Below, in pieces: positions 1,016 to 4,835 of a stretch of DNA of 64,000 bases. Both the position numbers and the translations under genes were made by a program. The notes beneath the pieces were generated by a model, which worked only from the letters and a program-made list of their open reading frames with translations, did no database searches and was not told the origin of the DNA. Source of the DNA: Candidatus Sericytochromatia bacterium (GTDB taxonomy: Bacteria; Cyanobacteriota; Sericytochromatia; S15B-MN24; UBA4093); contig JAKFCT010000052.1 in NCBI GenBank assembly GCA_036676495.1, forward strand, positions 19,246 through 83,245, given 5' to 3'. Numbering within the stretch: the first letter of the stretch is position 1; each line of letters opens with the position of its first letter.

Positions 1016-2260
1016 TCACCGCATCCTCGCTTCCTGCGCCAGCGGATCTCCCGCGAGGACCCCGAGCACCCAGCGGTACTCCTGCTCAAGCGCGCTTACG
1101 AGCCCTTGCTTCAGCGCTGCCGGAAGCACCTCCCAGGTGTACGTCTCGATCTCCAGGTGCTGGCTGAAGGGCCGCTTCAGCCAGAGCTCGAGCAGCCGCC
1201 GGGTCTCGGCCTGCGTGGAAAGGAAGCGCTCGTAGCTCTCCGCGAAGAGCGGGACATGGAAGTGAATCCTCCACTCTTGAGCGCGGTCGTTCGTGAGATC
1301 CAGCAGGGCTTGGGGCAAATCCGGGAAGTAGCGCTGGAAGCCTCCTTTCATGCGTGCCATGACCTGGTGCAGGTAGATGGGCTCGGCCAAGGGGCCGAGA
1401 TCCTCTCCGGTCCGGCGCCGCTCCGCGAGATCCGTGGGCAGGCTAACTTTGAGAGCGGAGCTGAGCTGGATCTTCCCGATTTGGATGCCGACCCCTTCGA
1501 GCCGGGCGATCGCCGCCTCGGGCTCCTCGTACGCCACCGCCAGGTGGCAGGCGTCCAGGCAGATCCGCACGTGCTCGAGAAGCTTGGCCTCCGCCTCCGG
1601 AACCGCGATGCCCAGCCGCTTGGCCAACGCGTGGCCTCCGCGCGGAAGCAGCCAGCCCTCGAAGAAGCGTACGACGTCGCCGGTATTGGAGAGCGTGCCC
1701 CCGGGCTCCGGCTCGAGATCGAGGTGAATGCGTTTTCCCGTCATCTGCTGGAGGATCGCCAGATTTTCGACGACGGCCACCAGTTGCATGACCGCGCAGT
1801 CGTATCCCTCGCGATTCCAGCGTTGGCTCCAGGCCTTGTAAGAGATGGGAACCGTCGAGATGCTCCCTTCCACTCCCTCCGGCAGGAGGGCGGCAAGGAT
1901 AGCGACAAGCCGCAGGGTGTAGGCACGACGGGCCTCCGTCGTCCAATCCGGAGCAAAGACCTGCTCTTTGACCCGTTGATGGTGAAACGCTCCGTACGGG
2001 AAGCCGATAATCGTGAAGAGGTAGAGCCCCTGTCTCTCGAGGAGATCTCGAAGCCCCTGCAAGCGGTCGTCGATCAGGAGATCCTCGGCTTCGGCGGCGG
2101 AGAGCCGCAACCCGACTCCGAAGGCGCGATCCGGAGCGAGGCGTCGCTTGAGTTCCAGGGTCGTCTCGCGAAGGTTGGCAAATACGTCCTTCCAGCCGTT
2201 GCTGGCATGGACGTTGCCGCAGTAGGTGAGGTGATGGCGGGCGTCGGGTCCGACTCGCAT
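1016..2260 (-). CDS. eboE: EboE-family TIM-barrel (xylose isomerase-like) protein
   Basis: HLTYCGNVH, FGVGLRLS, FPYGAFH..VKEQVFAPDW, LEPEPG, YLHQV, EWRIHFHVPLF, HLEIETYTW motifs; AGGAGG RBS before ATG at 2260. Confidence 0.9.
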   Translation of the reverse strand: MRVGPDARHHLTYCGNVHASNGWKDVFANLRETTLELKRRLAPDRAFGVGLRLSAAEAEDLLIDDRLQGLRDLLERQGLYLFTIIGFPYGAFHHQRVKEQVFAPDWTTEARRAYTLRLVAILAALLPEGVEGSISTVPISYKAWSQRWNREGYDCAVMQLVAVVENLAILQQMTGKRIHLDLEPEPGGTLSNTGDVVRFFEGWLLPRGGHALAKRLGIAVPEAEAKLLEHVRICLDACHLAVAYEEPEAAIARLEGVGIQIGKIQLSSALKVSLPTDLAERRRTGEDLGPLAEPIYLHQVMARMKGGFQRYFPDLPQALLDLTNDRAQEWRIHFHVPLFAESYERFLSTQAETRRLLELWLKRPFSQHLEIETYTWEVLPAALKQGLVSALEQEYRWVLGVLAGDPLAQEARMR

Positions 2261-2271
2261 GGCGTACCTCC

Positions 2272-2508
2272 TCAAGCGGGTTCGCGCCGTGGAGGGCGGA
2301 ACTTGGGGGACTGGCTCAGAAAGCGGATCGGGTTGTCGTAAACGATCGTGCGGATCAGCGACTCGGCATGCTGGCGCATCTCCAGGATGAACTGCACGGC
2401 CGTGGGAACGCTCGATCCCCAGTCGCAGGCCGGGTTCACCGTGAGGCGCTTCGCGCCGTGAACGTCGCTCATGTCGGCTCGAGGTACGGGCGCGCGCTGC
2501 CTCGCCAC
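2272..2508 (-). CDS. Possible small hypothetical protein upstream of eboE
   Basis: Short ORF ending 11 nt before eboE start; no recognisable motif; start uncertain. Confidence 0.3.
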   Translation of the reverse strand: MARQRAPVPRADMSDVHGAKRLTVNPACDWGSSVPTAVQFILEMRQHAESLIRTIVYDNPIRFLSQSPKFRPPRREPA

Positions 2509-2775
2509 TCCCGCTCAAAGGCTTGCATGATTGGCCTCCCGCTCGACGCGCGCGCTCCCGGCGCGCTTCCTCATCTTCGTTGGCGACCCCCGGGAGCGGC
2601 TAGAGAGGAATCGCTAACGAATTTACCCACGGGGGCGGCGGCCTGTTTCCGTGAAAGCTTAACCCAAGCTTAGCGATTCGGAGGTTCGTTTACGTTCCGT
2701 TAACGCCCGATAGAGGGAAAAGAAGCTCTCCCCTCGGAGAAGATCCGCCGTCCCGCGCTTTCGAAGGAGGCCGTC

Positions 2776-3417
2776 ATGTCGCAGGTGAACGCCGTCCGGC
2801 AGGCTACGTTCCGCCCCGCCGTACAAGGATTTACCAACCCGATCAAGGACACCGAGACCGCCCTGGGTGCCGTGCGGGTGGCCACTCCCGTCGTGAAGGC
2901 CGGCCTGGATCATTTCGGGGGGTCCTTGCTCTCGCGCATCGGCGGTGGGGCCACACCGCTGGCGAATGGCGGCTTCACGGCCTTGCCCAGCGCCGGCGTT
3001 TCGCTGGGTGGGGGAGTTTCCGGCGGCGTCATGACCGGTGGAGCGCGCGGCCTCGTCTCGCGAGCCGGGACGGCGGTCTCGGGAGCGCTCAACACCGTGC
3101 TCGGAGCCATGAAGTCCAATGCGCTCGTCGCGGCGGCCGTCTCGGCCCTCACCAACGGCATCTCCTTCCTGACCGGAAAGACCTCCGGCCAGCGGGCCGC
3201 GAGCAACTTCGTCGTCGATACCGGCGCCTACACGGCCATCGGCGCCTCGAGCACCCTGGTGGGCGCCGCCCTCGGGTCGCTCATCCCCATCCCCTTCGTG
3301 GGGACCGCCATCGGCCTCGCCGCCGGCATGGGCCTCGGCTACCTCTACGAGAAGACCCTGCGCAAGCCGCTTTCGGACAAGCTGGCCGAAACCGTCTTCC
3401 AGAAGCTTCCCGATTAA
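2776..3417 (+). CDS. Hypothetical Gly/Ala-rich protein with C-terminal glycine-zipper hydrophobic domain
   Basis: AAGGAGG RBS; strong GC3 bias; [26 protein letters not shown] motif; no Sec signal. Confidence 0.85.
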   Translation: MSQVNAVRQATFRPAVQGFTNPIKDTETALGAVRVATPVVKAGLDHFGGSLLSRIGGGATPLANGGFTALPSAGVSLGGGVSGGVMTGGARGLVSRAGTAVSGALNTVLGAMKSNALVAAAVSALTNGISFLTGKTSGQRAASNFVVDTGAYTAIGASSTLVGAALGSLIPIPFVGTAIGLAAGMGLGYLYEKTLRKPLSDKLAETVFQKLPD

Positions 3418-3456
3418 CCCGCCGGCCCTCCCGGCCGTCATCCCGTTCACCCGCGA

Positions 3457-3488
3457 ACACCGCCTCCGCAGCTCGGAGGCGGTGTTTG
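3457..3488 (+). terminator. Intrinsic terminator-like hairpin
   Basis: ACACCGCCTCCG-CAGCT-CGGAGGCGGTGT followed by TT. Confidence 0.6.
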
Positions 3489-3617
3489 CGGTCTTGGCGG
3501 GCGCAAGGTTAAGAGAAGGCAAAGGACGAGCAAAGGTTTGGCGAGCTGAAGCAAGCCGTTTAATAATCGCCCTATAACCCTCGTATAACCGGCTCACCCC
3601 ATCGAGGAGGGATGCTC

Positions 3618-4739
3618 ATGGCGATTCAGAACGTTAACTCGGTCACCCGCATTCAGACCGCTGCGGCCAGCACCCGCACCTATACCGTCAAGAAGGGGGA
3701 CTACCTCGCCAAGATCGCCCGTGAGCAACTCGGGGATGCCAGCCGCTGGCCCGAGATCTACGCGATGAACAAGAGCGTGATCGGATCCAACCCCAACCTG
3801 ATCTACGCAGGCCAGGTTTACCGCCTCCCGGCCAAGACCCAGACCCCGGCCCCGACTCCTGCTCCCAAGCCTACCCCCGCTCCCAAGCCTACCCCCGCTC
3901 CCAAGCCTACCCCCGCTCCCAAGCCCACCCCGGCCCCCAAGCCGACTCCGGCTCCGAAGCCCACCCCGAAGCCCTCGCCGGATCCCATCAAGTTCAAGGT
4001 CGATCCCGAGGATATCCGCATCGGCACCCCCTTGATCGCCAAGGTGGGCAACTGGATCGCCGACCGGGTCGGACTCGGATCCATCGGCGGCGGCCCGAGC
4101 GGCGGCTTCATGAACCCCGGCCTCGACCCCACCATCGGTGGCCCGATCGATCCTGGCCTGGGCGGCGGCTTCGGCGCAGACCCGATCATGGCGGACCCGG
4201 GTCTCGGCGGAGCTCTCCCCAGCGAGCCGGTCGCCCTCGACCCCGGCATGGGCGACCCCTCCCTCGCCACCGACTTCTCGGGCGGCACCATGGGCGGCAT
4301 CTCCGGTGGCGTCAGCAACGTGATGAGCCGCCTGGGCGAGGCCGTGAGCGCCGGATTCCAGGCCGCCAAGGGCGCCCTGAAGCGGAACTTCATCTTCGCG
4401 GGCATCACCTCGGCCGTCAGCAACGGCATCGCCTACTTCACGGGCAAGGCCACCGGCAAGCAGGCCGTTAGTGGCTTCGTCGCCGACACCGGCGCCTACA
4501 CCGCCATCGGTTCGGCCAGCACCTTCGCCGGAGCGGCCCTGGGCACCCTGATCCCCATCCCCTTCGTGGGCACGGCCATCGGTATCGCCGCCGGTATGGG
4601 CCTCGGCTACCTCTACGAGAAGTTCGTCCGCAAGGACCTCGTGAAGAAGGTCGAAGGCGTCGTCGACGAACTCGGCGGAGCGACCGGCAAGAACGCCCTC
4701 GCCCAGGGCAAGAGCGCGCTCGACAGGCTCTCCCTGTAA
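3618..4739 (+). CDS. LysM-domain protein with Pro-rich stalk and C-terminal glycine-zipper domain (paralog of upstream gene)
   Basis: [13 protein letters not shown]...[28 protein letters not shown] is a LysM; GAGGAGG RBS; C-terminal domain matches 2776..3417. Confidence 0.9.
3852..3959 (+). repeat. 18-bp coding tandem repeat x6 (PTPAPK)
   Basis: Unit CCTACCCCCGCTCCCAAG identical at 3870, 3888, 3906; three further synonymous variants. Confidence 0.95.
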
Positions 4740-4748
4740 GCCAAATCC

Positions 4749-4788
4749 AAAAGAAAGCGCCGCCGAGAAATCGGCGGCGCTTTCTTTT
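4749..4788. terminator. Bidirectional intrinsic terminator
   Basis: AAAAGAAAGCGCCGCCGA-GAAA-TCGGCGGCGCTTTCTTTT between convergent genes. Confidence 0.9.
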
Positions 4789-4835
4789 GGATGGTAGGCG
4801 ATGGCAGGCGACGCGGCCCCGTGGGCAAGCGCCTG

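Follow-up and report, generated by a model that had tools for sequence, protein, structure and literature searches.

What might two adjacent genes do whose proteins end in the same glycine-zipper module, when one of them also carries a wall-binding LysM domain and neither begins with a Sec or Tat signal? The question is raised by a stretch of 64,000 nucleotides (hereafter the window; G+C 62–69% from end to end) from Candidatus Sericytochromatia, a class of uncultured, non-photosynthetic relatives of cyanobacteria; the assembly to which it belongs comprises 4.1 Mb in 106 contigs and is 92% complete. Gene 1 (positions 2776–3417, plus strand) is an open reading frame (ORF) of 213 amino acids (aa), and gene 2 (3618–4739, plus strand) encodes 373 aa. 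A first, sequence-only reading had taken the pair for an undescribed two-protein system for envelope attack or translocation. We find instead that the two genes are a short and a long form from a class-wide, multi-copy, uncharacterised family, and we tentatively favour the view that this family acts on the producer’s own envelope, with the C-terminal module giving membrane insertion and wall access.

The relationship between the two proteins is the starting point. They share 71 identities in 119 aligned positions (60%, BLASTP E 6e-42; residues 93–211 of gene 1 against 237–354 of gene 2), which corresponds to a C-terminal domain of ~120 aa; the 55 of 79 identities originally counted by eye are a sub-stretch of this alignment. 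Judged on sequence statistics, similarity of this type is far beyond chance. The region in common is in fact larger than first seen, because in both genes the domain is also preceded by an R-x-A/G-x-P-hydrophobic-hydrophobic-K motif and a glycine-rich stretch. In gene 1, a conserved polar N-terminus (residues 1–20) is followed by this motif (residues 33–44, VRVATPVVKAGL), by a Gly/Ala-rich part predicted to be disordered (45–92) and by the C-terminal module (93–213; positions 3052–3414, plus strand), made of amphipathic helix 1, a basic loop, the glycine-zipper hairpin and a basic amphipathic tail. In gene 2, the N-terminus is followed by the LysM domain (3681–3818, plus strand), a proline-rich spacer (3834–3980, plus strand), the R-x-A/G-x-P-type motif, a (L/M)G/Gly-rich stretch, the C-terminal module (4314–4673, plus strand; homologous to gene 1 residues 93–211) and a 21-aa tail. 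The LysM domain, as first read, scores 25.7 bits against PF01476 (cut-off 20.9, E 1.1e-5, residues 24–69 of the 375-aa form), and the (PTPAPK)6 run is an 18-bp unit repeated 5.9 times at 3861–3967 within the spacer (Tandem Repeats Finder), whose length differs among the gene 2 orthologs.

The pair is far from alone. A hidden Markov model built from 26 members and run on the six-frame translation of the window’s genome returned five paralogs with a strong match, one with a moderate and two with a weak match. Besides gene 1 and gene 2, the strong ones comprise two on contig C70, of which one is a short form of 203 aa and the other joins Amidase_2 to two LysM domains (its N-terminus being lost at the contig end), and a 177-aa short form on C57; the moderate one lies on C30 (E 3e-10), the weak ones on C5 and C38. 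Among 1.84 billion representative proteins, phmmer gave 73 matches at E ≤ 1e-3 and 20 at ≤ 1e-10, and most of the 73 proteins carry the domain at their C-terminus or close to it. When one genome per species was scanned, 23 loci were obtained, the nearest in metagenome-assembled genomes (MAGs) of Candidatus Sericytochromatia, 92% and 78% identical to gene 1. Within the class, 46 of 47 genomes have a family match at E ≤ 1e-5, with 1–8 matches each, and so do all 23 of high quality; the single genome lacking one is 74% complete. In a 251-genome sample of the phylum, 60 had a match, including all but one of the class; beyond it these were 12 of 99 in one family of small (1.7–2.2 Mb) genomes and 2 of 31 in a large-genome family, with none in the remaining listed families of that sample.

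By its sequence, every member has three parts: a conserved N-terminus (M-A-I/V-Q/S/N...) devoid of a Sec or Tat signal, a disordered glycine-rich stretch with one short, conserved helix, and the C-terminal module of ~120 aa. Short forms have 170–230 aa with a long disordered N-terminal half. Long forms carry passengers, namely LysM alone (gene 2 and relatives P0001, P0011 and P0015), Amidase_2 with LysM (P0013, P0030 and the C70 paralog) or CHAP/DUF1287 with LysM (P0016), and a signal peptide is missing from all that are full-length, which start, for example, M-A-V-R-L-D. When compared with the PHROG families, the amidase forms match endolysin family phrog_380 at E 1e-43 to 8e-45, and the best match of the gene 2 LysM is the wall-binding part of the same family (E 5.3e-22); gene 1 has no match, and no holin family was hit. 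In NCBIfam, the gene 2 LysM is closest to that of PRK11198 (E 7.8e-15, 55.6 bits against a cut-off of 134).

The module itself is, as the sequence-only reading supposed, undescribed, in that no curated Pfam or NCBIfam model covers it at cut-off. Two families come near. DUF1269 (PF06897, cut-off 26.9 bits) matches 4 of the 26 members at E ≤ 0.01 and scores 13.9 bits for gene 1, 15.7 for gene 2 and 26.0 for the best paralog; Gly-zipper_Omp (PF13488) matches five of the 26 at the same threshold (best 2.7e-6), neither gene 1 nor gene 2 among them, and two paralogs scored singly reach 17.0 and 17.1 bits against a 25-bit cut-off. When the gene 1 model and that of a distant member of 429 aa were compared with the PDB by Foldseek, nothing matched at E ≤ 0.001, and a profile search of the PDB sequences gave nothing significant. 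The ESM Atlas returned unnamed clusters alone, with no functional lead, the best of them (0.90) labelled Candidatus Blackallbacteria. Against the defence-system models of PADLOC, the hairpin matches only the candidate PDC-M09B, and that weakly (E 3e-5, ~20 bits). A literature search joining ‘Sericytochromatia’ with ‘LysM’ found nothing.

How the module may behave in a membrane can be read from conservation, hydrophobicity and charge. In the alignment of 26 short forms (gene 1 numbering), M1, D148, Y152, G156 and G176 are invariant, and G134, G163, G167, P173, G180, G184 and Y191 nearly so. G176, G180 and G184 make up a GxxxGxxxG motif in the C-terminal helix, so the glycine-zipper hairpin proposed from the letters stands; it consists of helix 2, an IPIP turn and helix 3, with a consensus that includes ADTxAYTxIG. 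AlphaFold2, run from the alignment, predicts helices at residues 39–48, 92–132, 138–167, 173–194 and 196–209 of gene 1, with a mean predicted local distance difference test score (pLDDT) of 60.7 and with values of 72–88 in the 10-residue blocks that start at residue 141; apart from the one short helix at 39–48, disorder is predicted for the first ~90 residues. Helix 3 is the sole helix at ordinary transmembrane hydrophobicity, with a 19-residue Kyte–Doolittle value of 1.8–1.9 in the two proteins. Lysines and arginines together average 1.65 per sequence ahead of helix 1, 1.54 in loop 1, zero in the IPIP turn and 2.42 in the tail. Basic flanks around an uncharged turn argue for a hairpin of the in-out-in type, whose two flanks stay on the side of insertion; a static anchor that leaves the N-terminal part outside fits this charge pattern poorly. 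The predicted complex of the two C-terminal modules scored 0.00, which carries no weight for or against their pairing.

The N-termini tell a second story. No hydrophobic segment is present there, the best 10-residue Kyte–Doolittle mean in the first 35 residues being 0.27 and 0.46 for the two proteins, which agrees with the earlier statement that a Sec or Tat signal is missing. Their polar character, also stated then, is conserved: most of the 26 aligned members begin M-A-I/V, and the N-terminal residues are kept while their synonymous codons vary (GCG/GCT/GCC/GCA, ATT/ATC, CAG/CAA), so that the constraint must be on the peptide. The R-x-A/G-x-P-hydrophobic-hydrophobic-K motif stands, as read from the alignment, ~26–56 residues from the start in short forms, and the same R-x-A-x-P motif stands after the passenger domain in long forms. 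There is no cysteine in either protein of the window, and only 4 in 5,289 residues of the family.

Short and long forms recur side by side. The window’s genome has two such pairs, gene 1 with gene 2 and the 203-aa short form with the amidase form on C70; on contig C5, an unfused, signal-less LysM protein adjoins the weak paralog and mirrors the gene 2 fusion. Distant families of the class have two to four family genes in tandem, and the sister lineage has adjacent genes of 292 + 388 aa and of 299 + 567 aa. The pairing noticed in the window thus extends to distant relatives. Two other genomes keep gene 1–gene 2–pth–prs–glmU in this order, and one of them has a third family gene in that place; four further loci have the full series short form–ABC ATPase–amidase form–accD–accA, and two more have part of it. 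Between the window and these two relatives, gene 1 is 91.5% and 77.9% identical and gene 2 76.5% and 67.6%, to be compared with 92.7% and 88.5% for Pth, 98.5% and 96.2% for Prs, 90.7% and 84.2% for GlmU, and 92.3% and 87.9% for RlmN. Gene 1 therefore evolves about as slowly as its housekeeping neighbours (90.7–98.5% and 84.2–96.2%).

Regulation provides a further link between the family and the wall. Two paralogs share TTTACC...-N-CGATAA upstream, and the motif derived from them, TTTACCGA(A/T)T-N13/14-CCCGATAA, is found in a relaxed form within 150 nt upstream of 16 of 42 distinct family genes, its presence at the two source paralogs being circular. These genes come from several genera and comprise both short and amidase forms as well as two other subtypes; the clear sites end 36–61 nt before the start, and for two relaxed matches the distance is 52 and 99 nt. 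When 15 of the sites were combined into a weight matrix, it gave 17 matches of at least 16 bits in the window’s genome, and the nine best all lie 37–71 nt upstream of ORFs: the C70 short form, a signal-less LysM protein, a signal-less LysM + Amidase_6/CHAP protein, a C39-like peptidase, a 79-aa protein with an N-terminus like that of gene 1, three lipoproteins (one clostripain-like) and a 207-aa protein. As the strict pattern has 10 matches genome-wide against ~6 expected by chance from base composition, the weight of the motif comes from its being kept in other genomes and from its placement upstream of ORFs.

The consensus of sigma-28 promoters is TAAA-N15-GCCGATAA, and the −10 part of the family motif we take to be equal to it; the canonical consensus as a whole had no match upstream of the six genes scanned. 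The −10 element CCGATAA is likewise present upstream of flgB and a flgG-like gene, where the −35 is another one, of the TAAA type, and two sigma genes of the FliA/WhiG family are located in the two flagellar clusters. By inference, the sigma factor that reads the family promoter would be of the sigma-28 type. Promoters with a sigma-28-type −10, which many family genes share with other signal-less LysM/CHAP proteins, point to a regulated wall-remodelling programme, which could presumably serve cell separation, the insertion of envelope machines or controlled lysis. There is precedent for wall proteins under such control: in Bacillus subtilis, LytC, LytD and LytF are amidase or LysM autolysins that depend on sigma-D, a sigma-28 factor. 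They resemble the present case in that amidase and LysM wall proteins are co-regulated through a sigma-28-type promoter. They differ in having Sec signals and no membrane module, where the family has a membrane module and no Sec signal, and the −35 element here (TTTACCGAWT) is non-canonical.

From the anatomy, distribution, synteny, conservation and common promoter-like motif described above, we infer how the family might work. The hairpin would enter the cytoplasmic membrane of the producer from inside, both basic flanks staying in the cytoplasm. Oligomerisation through the glycine zipper would then let the signal-less wall module reach the peptidoglycan, the proline-rich spacer bridging the distance from membrane to wall. 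Short forms without a passenger, such as gene 1, would co-assemble through the module and set threshold or timing, in a manner reminiscent of holins and antiholins.

Several lines of evidence lead us to this proposal. First, all passengers are wall modules that match phage endolysin families. Second, the family is present throughout the class, in conserved synteny, and gene 1 is conserved like a housekeeping gene. Third, the absence of a hydrophobic N-terminus goes together with a charge pattern that fits a hairpin inserted from the N-terminal side. Fourth, only helix 3 reaches transmembrane hydrophobicity, as in inducible membrane-active proteins. Fifth, short and long forms recur as pairs, and many family genes share the promoter motif with signal-less wall enzymes.

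By analogy, the closest architectural precedent is a group of phage endolysins with a C-terminal transmembrane domain. M4Lys of the Salmonella phage BSPM4 and ORF39 of the Hafnia phage Enc34 are reported to have an N-terminal enzyme and such a domain, which is needed for the lysis of E. coli, whereas holin and Sec are not; their authors call the mechanism unknown. The likeness lies in the combination of a signal-less, wall-active N-terminal part with a membrane domain made of an amphipathic and a hydrophobic helix, and the relatives P0013 and P0030 (Amidase_2 + LysM + module, no signal peptide) have this architecture. There are differences as well. The enzyme family is another one, the passengers here being Amidase_2/LysM endolysins and not of the PHA02564 type. 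The genes are chromosomal, class-wide, multi-copy and placed by housekeeping genes, not in a lysis cassette. Finally, gene 2 has a binding domain alone and gene 1 no passenger, and a conserved N-terminal peptide and a glycine-rich region are added.

Cassettes of a holin or pinholin with an endolysin, in which a small membrane protein with a charged C-terminal tail adjoins a signal-less wall enzyme and the pore helix is packed by a glycine zipper, offer another parallel. In the family, by contrast, the short forms of 170–230 aa have a long disordered N-terminal half, and the ‘endolysin’ has its membrane module in common with its partner; the setting is not that of a phage and, among the PHROG families, no holin matched.

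A number of observations weigh against our proposal. The conserved extreme N-terminus has no role in it and is more in keeping with an export signal. Of the 24 LysM frames of the window’s genome, at least 10 have neither a signal peptide nor the module; these proteins must take a different route, and the family could use it too. For a lysis device it is unusual that every genome of the class should keep five to eight genes with lytic potential; gene 2, moreover, has a wall-binding but no catalytic domain, and gene 1 has neither. The structure models are modest (mean pLDDT 60.7 for gene 1 and 58.9 for the second model) and led to no structural relative in the PDB. The precedent of M4Lys and Enc34 is a likeness of architecture, with no sequence similarity seen. 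As for regulation, the family motif is unmatched upstream of gene 1, gene 2 and their orthologs; what stands upstream of gene 1 is a variant of the pattern with a shorter spacing, and the G of its −10 is not kept in the orthologs.

A broader statement, that Sericytochromatia and part of the non-photosynthetic sister lineage use an undescribed non-Sec route to bring wall enzymes and wall-binding proteins into the envelopes of living cells, is in our judgement possible but doubtful. One version of it may be the self-inserting glycine-zipper module that carries or admits its own endolysin-like passenger. That signal-less wall-binding proteins are a wider trait of the organism follows from the LysM census of the window’s genome, with 33 matches in 24 frames: four N-termini have a clear hydrophobic segment and at least 10 of those that could be read do not, about 9 of the 24 having been translated in the wrong frame and counted in neither group. 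The signal-less LysM proteins include some of 937–1315 aa, and LysM loci are found, for example, at C3:880, C5:445, C10:69772, C31:71706, C73:14899, C88:38167, C91:48564 and C94:47555.

The strongest competitor to the own-envelope proposal, though we consider it unlikely, is flagellar type III export. Here, the conserved, unstructured N-terminus would be the signal for the flagellar gate, the only type III apparatus found in the genome; the proteins would leave unfolded, LysM or amidase would dock on or cut the cell’s own wall, and the hairpin would insert from the periplasmic side. FlgJ is a wall hydrolase exported by this route in some bacteria, and the FlgJ of the window’s genome is a rod-binding domain of 111 aa without the hydrolase part, for which the passengers could, for example, stand in. 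The constraint on the N-terminal peptide, the predicted disorder of the first ~90 residues, the near absence of cysteine (4 in 5,289 residues) and the signal-less LysM frames (at least 10 of 24) all go well with such an export. So do the CCGATAA elements upstream of flgB and the flgG-like gene and the sigma genes in the flagellar clusters; none of the 17 weight-matrix matches, however, puts the family −35 element at a flagellar gene. FlhA (PF00771) is present in 45 of the 47 class genomes, close to the 46 of 47 for the family, and both FlhA loci of the window’s genome are flagellar. Since FlhA is near-universal in the class and in the sister family searched (150 of 151 genomes), this co-occurrence cannot discriminate.

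The signal itself can be compared with that of an early flagellar substrate. In Salmonella FlgD, the signal is reported to comprise hydrophobic residues 2–5 (SIAV) and a docking motif at residues 36–40, which must be at least 19–30 residues apart (PMC8983047). The family agrees with early substrates in having no Sec signal and an unstructured N-terminus, and its small hydrophobic residues at positions 2–3 fall within the positions 2–5 of that criterion. The motif of the short forms, ~26–56 residues from the start, resembles the FlgD layout; however, the gate-recognition criterion is F-x-x-x-hydrophobic at 30 or more residues from the start, and the motif here is a different one, R-x-A-x-P-hydrophobic-hydrophobic-K. 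Nor does it keep a fixed distance from the N-terminus, as in long forms it comes after the passenger. No chaperone gene adjoins the family genes, rod, hook and filament domains are missing from the family, and gene 1 and gene 2 have no flagellar neighbourhood. The likeness of the N-terminus to known export signals is only a qualitative one.

The flagellar genes have features worth recording for their own sake. In nearly every class genome there are two FlhA (FHIPEP) genes of full length, one per flagellar cluster; in the window’s genome these are C38:27430–29388 (minus strand) and C45:58017–60008 (plus strand). The same genomes have additional ORFs, in the window’s genome C38:14629–15312 and C47:3164–3892 (both minus strand), that match only the cytoplasmic C-terminal half of FlhA, and one family of the class has 7–12 FHIPEP matches per genome. 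A FliF-like protein of 627 aa (L045 10051–11931, on C45) has a C-terminal match to the FliG middle domain (residues 555–623) and, on this basis, may be a FliF–FliG fusion.

Another export route, a double-glycine leader with a C39-ABC exporter, was considered and rejected. Many relatives have an A-G-G-G run ~20–35 residues from the N-terminus (P0003, P0008, P0012, P0013, P0030, L015, L016 and L017), but gene 1 and gene 2 do not, and the three Peptidase_C39 matches lie in frames of 215–450 aa, too short for a peptidase-ABC exporter. The C39-like peptidase that carries the family promoter is kept as a lead alone; with a member of the same putative regulon at hand, the A-G-G-G run could be a processing site.

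The attack device of the sequence-only reading, in its developed form, has the proteins secreted, the LysM, amidase or CHAP parts opening the wall of a target, and the hairpin serving as pore or translocon in a mixed oligomer of gene 1 and gene 2. We regard this as improbable. The likeness to pore-forming toxins that inspired it does have a basis in sequence, as the hairpin has distant relatives at the C-termini of an RHS-repeat protein (P0064; L026) and of weakly WXG100-like proteins (P0041, 23 bits against a cut-off of 27.3; L031 and L032 as further candidates); weak relatives also end two long proteins of Paenibacillus and Pseudomonas that look phage-tail-like in sequence. These matches to toxin C-termini are nonetheless weak (E 4e-7 to 1e-4) and limited to the compositionally biased hairpin. 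TelE and EsxX, LXG toxins of type VII systems, have a C-terminal glycine zipper that is reported to damage or depolarise membranes, and they come with immunity proteins; in TelE, one glycine of the motif is critical, and CdzC/D and Tse4 are named alongside as glycine-zipper toxins. The family shares with them the small-residue-rich C-terminal helix with GxxxGxxxG, and its moderate hydrophobicity is that of proteins that pass from a soluble to a membrane form. Unlike them, gene 1 and gene 2 lack an immunity gene and any trafficking domain (LXG/WXG100, RHS or PAAR) detectable with Pfam or NCBIfam, show no strain-to-strain polymorphism and belong to a family that is core to the class.

The absence of an immunity gene, already apparent at first reading, extends to all three syntenic loci: between gene 2 and pth there is no further coding-like ORF in the window, in L010 or in L011, save the third family paralog in L010. 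A secreted pore-former directed against other kinds of cell would need no such gene. Yet in polymorphic toxins the N-terminal part is conserved and the C-terminal part varies, and here the reverse is seen, the conserved part being the membrane domain; the gene order is fixed beside housekeeping genes (pth–prs–glmU or accD–accA) in several genera, and the distribution is not patchy. Slow evolution of gene 1, on a par with its neighbours, and the lack of an immunity partner do not fit an interbacterial toxin. What survives of the original interpretation is the idea of a membrane-active, non-Sec, wall-docked protein, which is plausible; the signs of an interbacterial toxin are missing, and the unit is a class-wide core family.

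Least probable of all is that these are ordinary tail-anchored inner-membrane proteins, the hairpin an anchor, the N-terminal parts cytoplasmic and the LysM in a non-wall role as in the cytoplasmic PRK11198, its best NCBIfam match: although the missing export signal, a charge pattern that predicts both termini inside and the weak similarity to the membrane family DUF1269 would suit it, three wall-specific passengers (LysM, Amidase_2 and CHAP), the proline-rich spacers and the endolysin matches make a purely cytoplasmic life unlikely, and the conserved N-terminus and the short/long pairing are left unexplained.

With respect to the locus itself, gene 1 and gene 2 are probably transcribed separately, since each has its own conserved upstream blocks and a terminator-like hairpin lies between them. 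Upstream of gene 1, two promoter-like blocks on the plus strand (2658–2673, CTTAACCCAAGCTTAG; 2684–2713, GTTCGTTTACGTTCCGTTAACGCCCGATAG) are near-invariant in the three-genome alignment while their flanks diverge; the second ends in a sigma-28-like −10, CCCGATAG, ~60 nt before the gene 1 start, and the ribosome-binding site AAGGAGG (2764–2770, plus strand) is kept in both orthologous loci. Upstream of gene 2, a block at 3550–3599 (plus strand) is conserved in the same alignment and contains two copies of CTATAACC; the single match of a promoter scan is sigma-70-like, at 3538–3567. The terminator-like element between the genes (3460–3482, plus strand) is an inverted repeat, CCGCCTCCG-CAGCT-CGGAGGCGG, followed by TGTTTG; it is partly kept in the orthologs, has a weak T run, is unlisted by the terminator scan and was seen by sequence reading alone. 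That scan did list a long GC-rich hairpin with T runs and a 20-pair stem at 4746–4791 (strand not assigned), which is terminator-like and lies between the convergent gene 2 and pth. As listed, the gene 2 ORF covers 3612–4739 (plus strand, 375 aa), but both orthologous loci have ACG in place of its first ATG (3612), and just 5′ of 3618 there is a GGAGG(G) box, so the conserved ATG at 3618 (M-A-I-Q-N) is the likelier start. On the other side, the divergent gene upstream (1016–2518, minus strand) is a long ORF with a weak xylose-isomerase-like TIM barrel match (17.2 bits, below cut-off), and its true start probably lies well inside the listed ORF.

Elsewhere in the genome, CCGATAA occurs 15–110 nt before a ribosome-binding site and a coding-like ORF at the flgG-like gene, at flgB and at many lipoprotein genes (for example C23:28698, plus strand; C38:52097, minus strand), often paired with a TAAA/AAGnTTT-like −35; the 130 entries may include chance matches, and their distribution suggests a large sigma-28-type regulon. 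A pair of 77–79-aa proteins (C9:15818–16054, plus strand; C8 near 300, minus strand) has a common conserved C-terminal part, …EFKALHAHLFDPGNMPDGKFIPQ, and both genes have a TTTAC-N-CGATA pattern upstream, that on C9 being the third-best weight-matrix match. The C9 protein, of 79 aa, starts MAIRQFSQAYRPAVQG, like the N-terminus of gene 1, and has no match in Pfam or NCBIfam.

The 177-aa paralog directly follows a second MotA/MotB pair in two genera and lies within ~5.5 kb of it in a third. This pair (L009 5922–8213, on C57; L048; L050) is distinct from that of the flagellar cluster and has near it a CsgG-like gene, a PMT-type glycosyltransferase and a tetratricopeptide-repeat (TPR) protein. Zorya-type defence was rejected for it: its MotB matches ZorB generically, but its MotA has no ZorA match.

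Two cases at the margin of the family should also be mentioned. In a large cyanobacterial genome (G079), a 338-aa protein (L075) has a weak module match (E 1.3e-9) after an N-terminal part that, on a reading of its sequence, is a candidate HNH-like domain. A MAG that is titled Stenomitos sp., hence labelled as a photosynthetic cyanobacterium, and is also among the close loci of the one-genome-per-species scan carries family genes on contigs L012, L014 and L017; these have the gene order and high third-position G+C of the Sericytochromatia MAG contigs L015, L013 and L016 and are probably mis-binned.

What, then, would the family mean for its bearers? How signal-less hydrolases cross the cytoplasmic membrane is understood only for phage lysis and a few secretion systems, and here an entire bacterial class keeps several signal-less proteins that bind or cut the wall, fused to one small, putatively membrane-active module. 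Were these plain membrane proteins, the find would merely be a new lineage-specific family, and were the flagellar gate the route, the known uses of flagellar export would be widened. If a non-Sec route is indeed in use, it would be a new way for peptidoglycan hydrolases to cross the cytoplasmic membrane; and if, as we propose, the module admits wall enzymes in living cells, the principle of export would be new, and wall enzymes could be delivered from inside with a compact tool. For an uncultured lineage that is relevant to early cyanobacterial evolution, the family also offers a first way into the function of the cell envelope.

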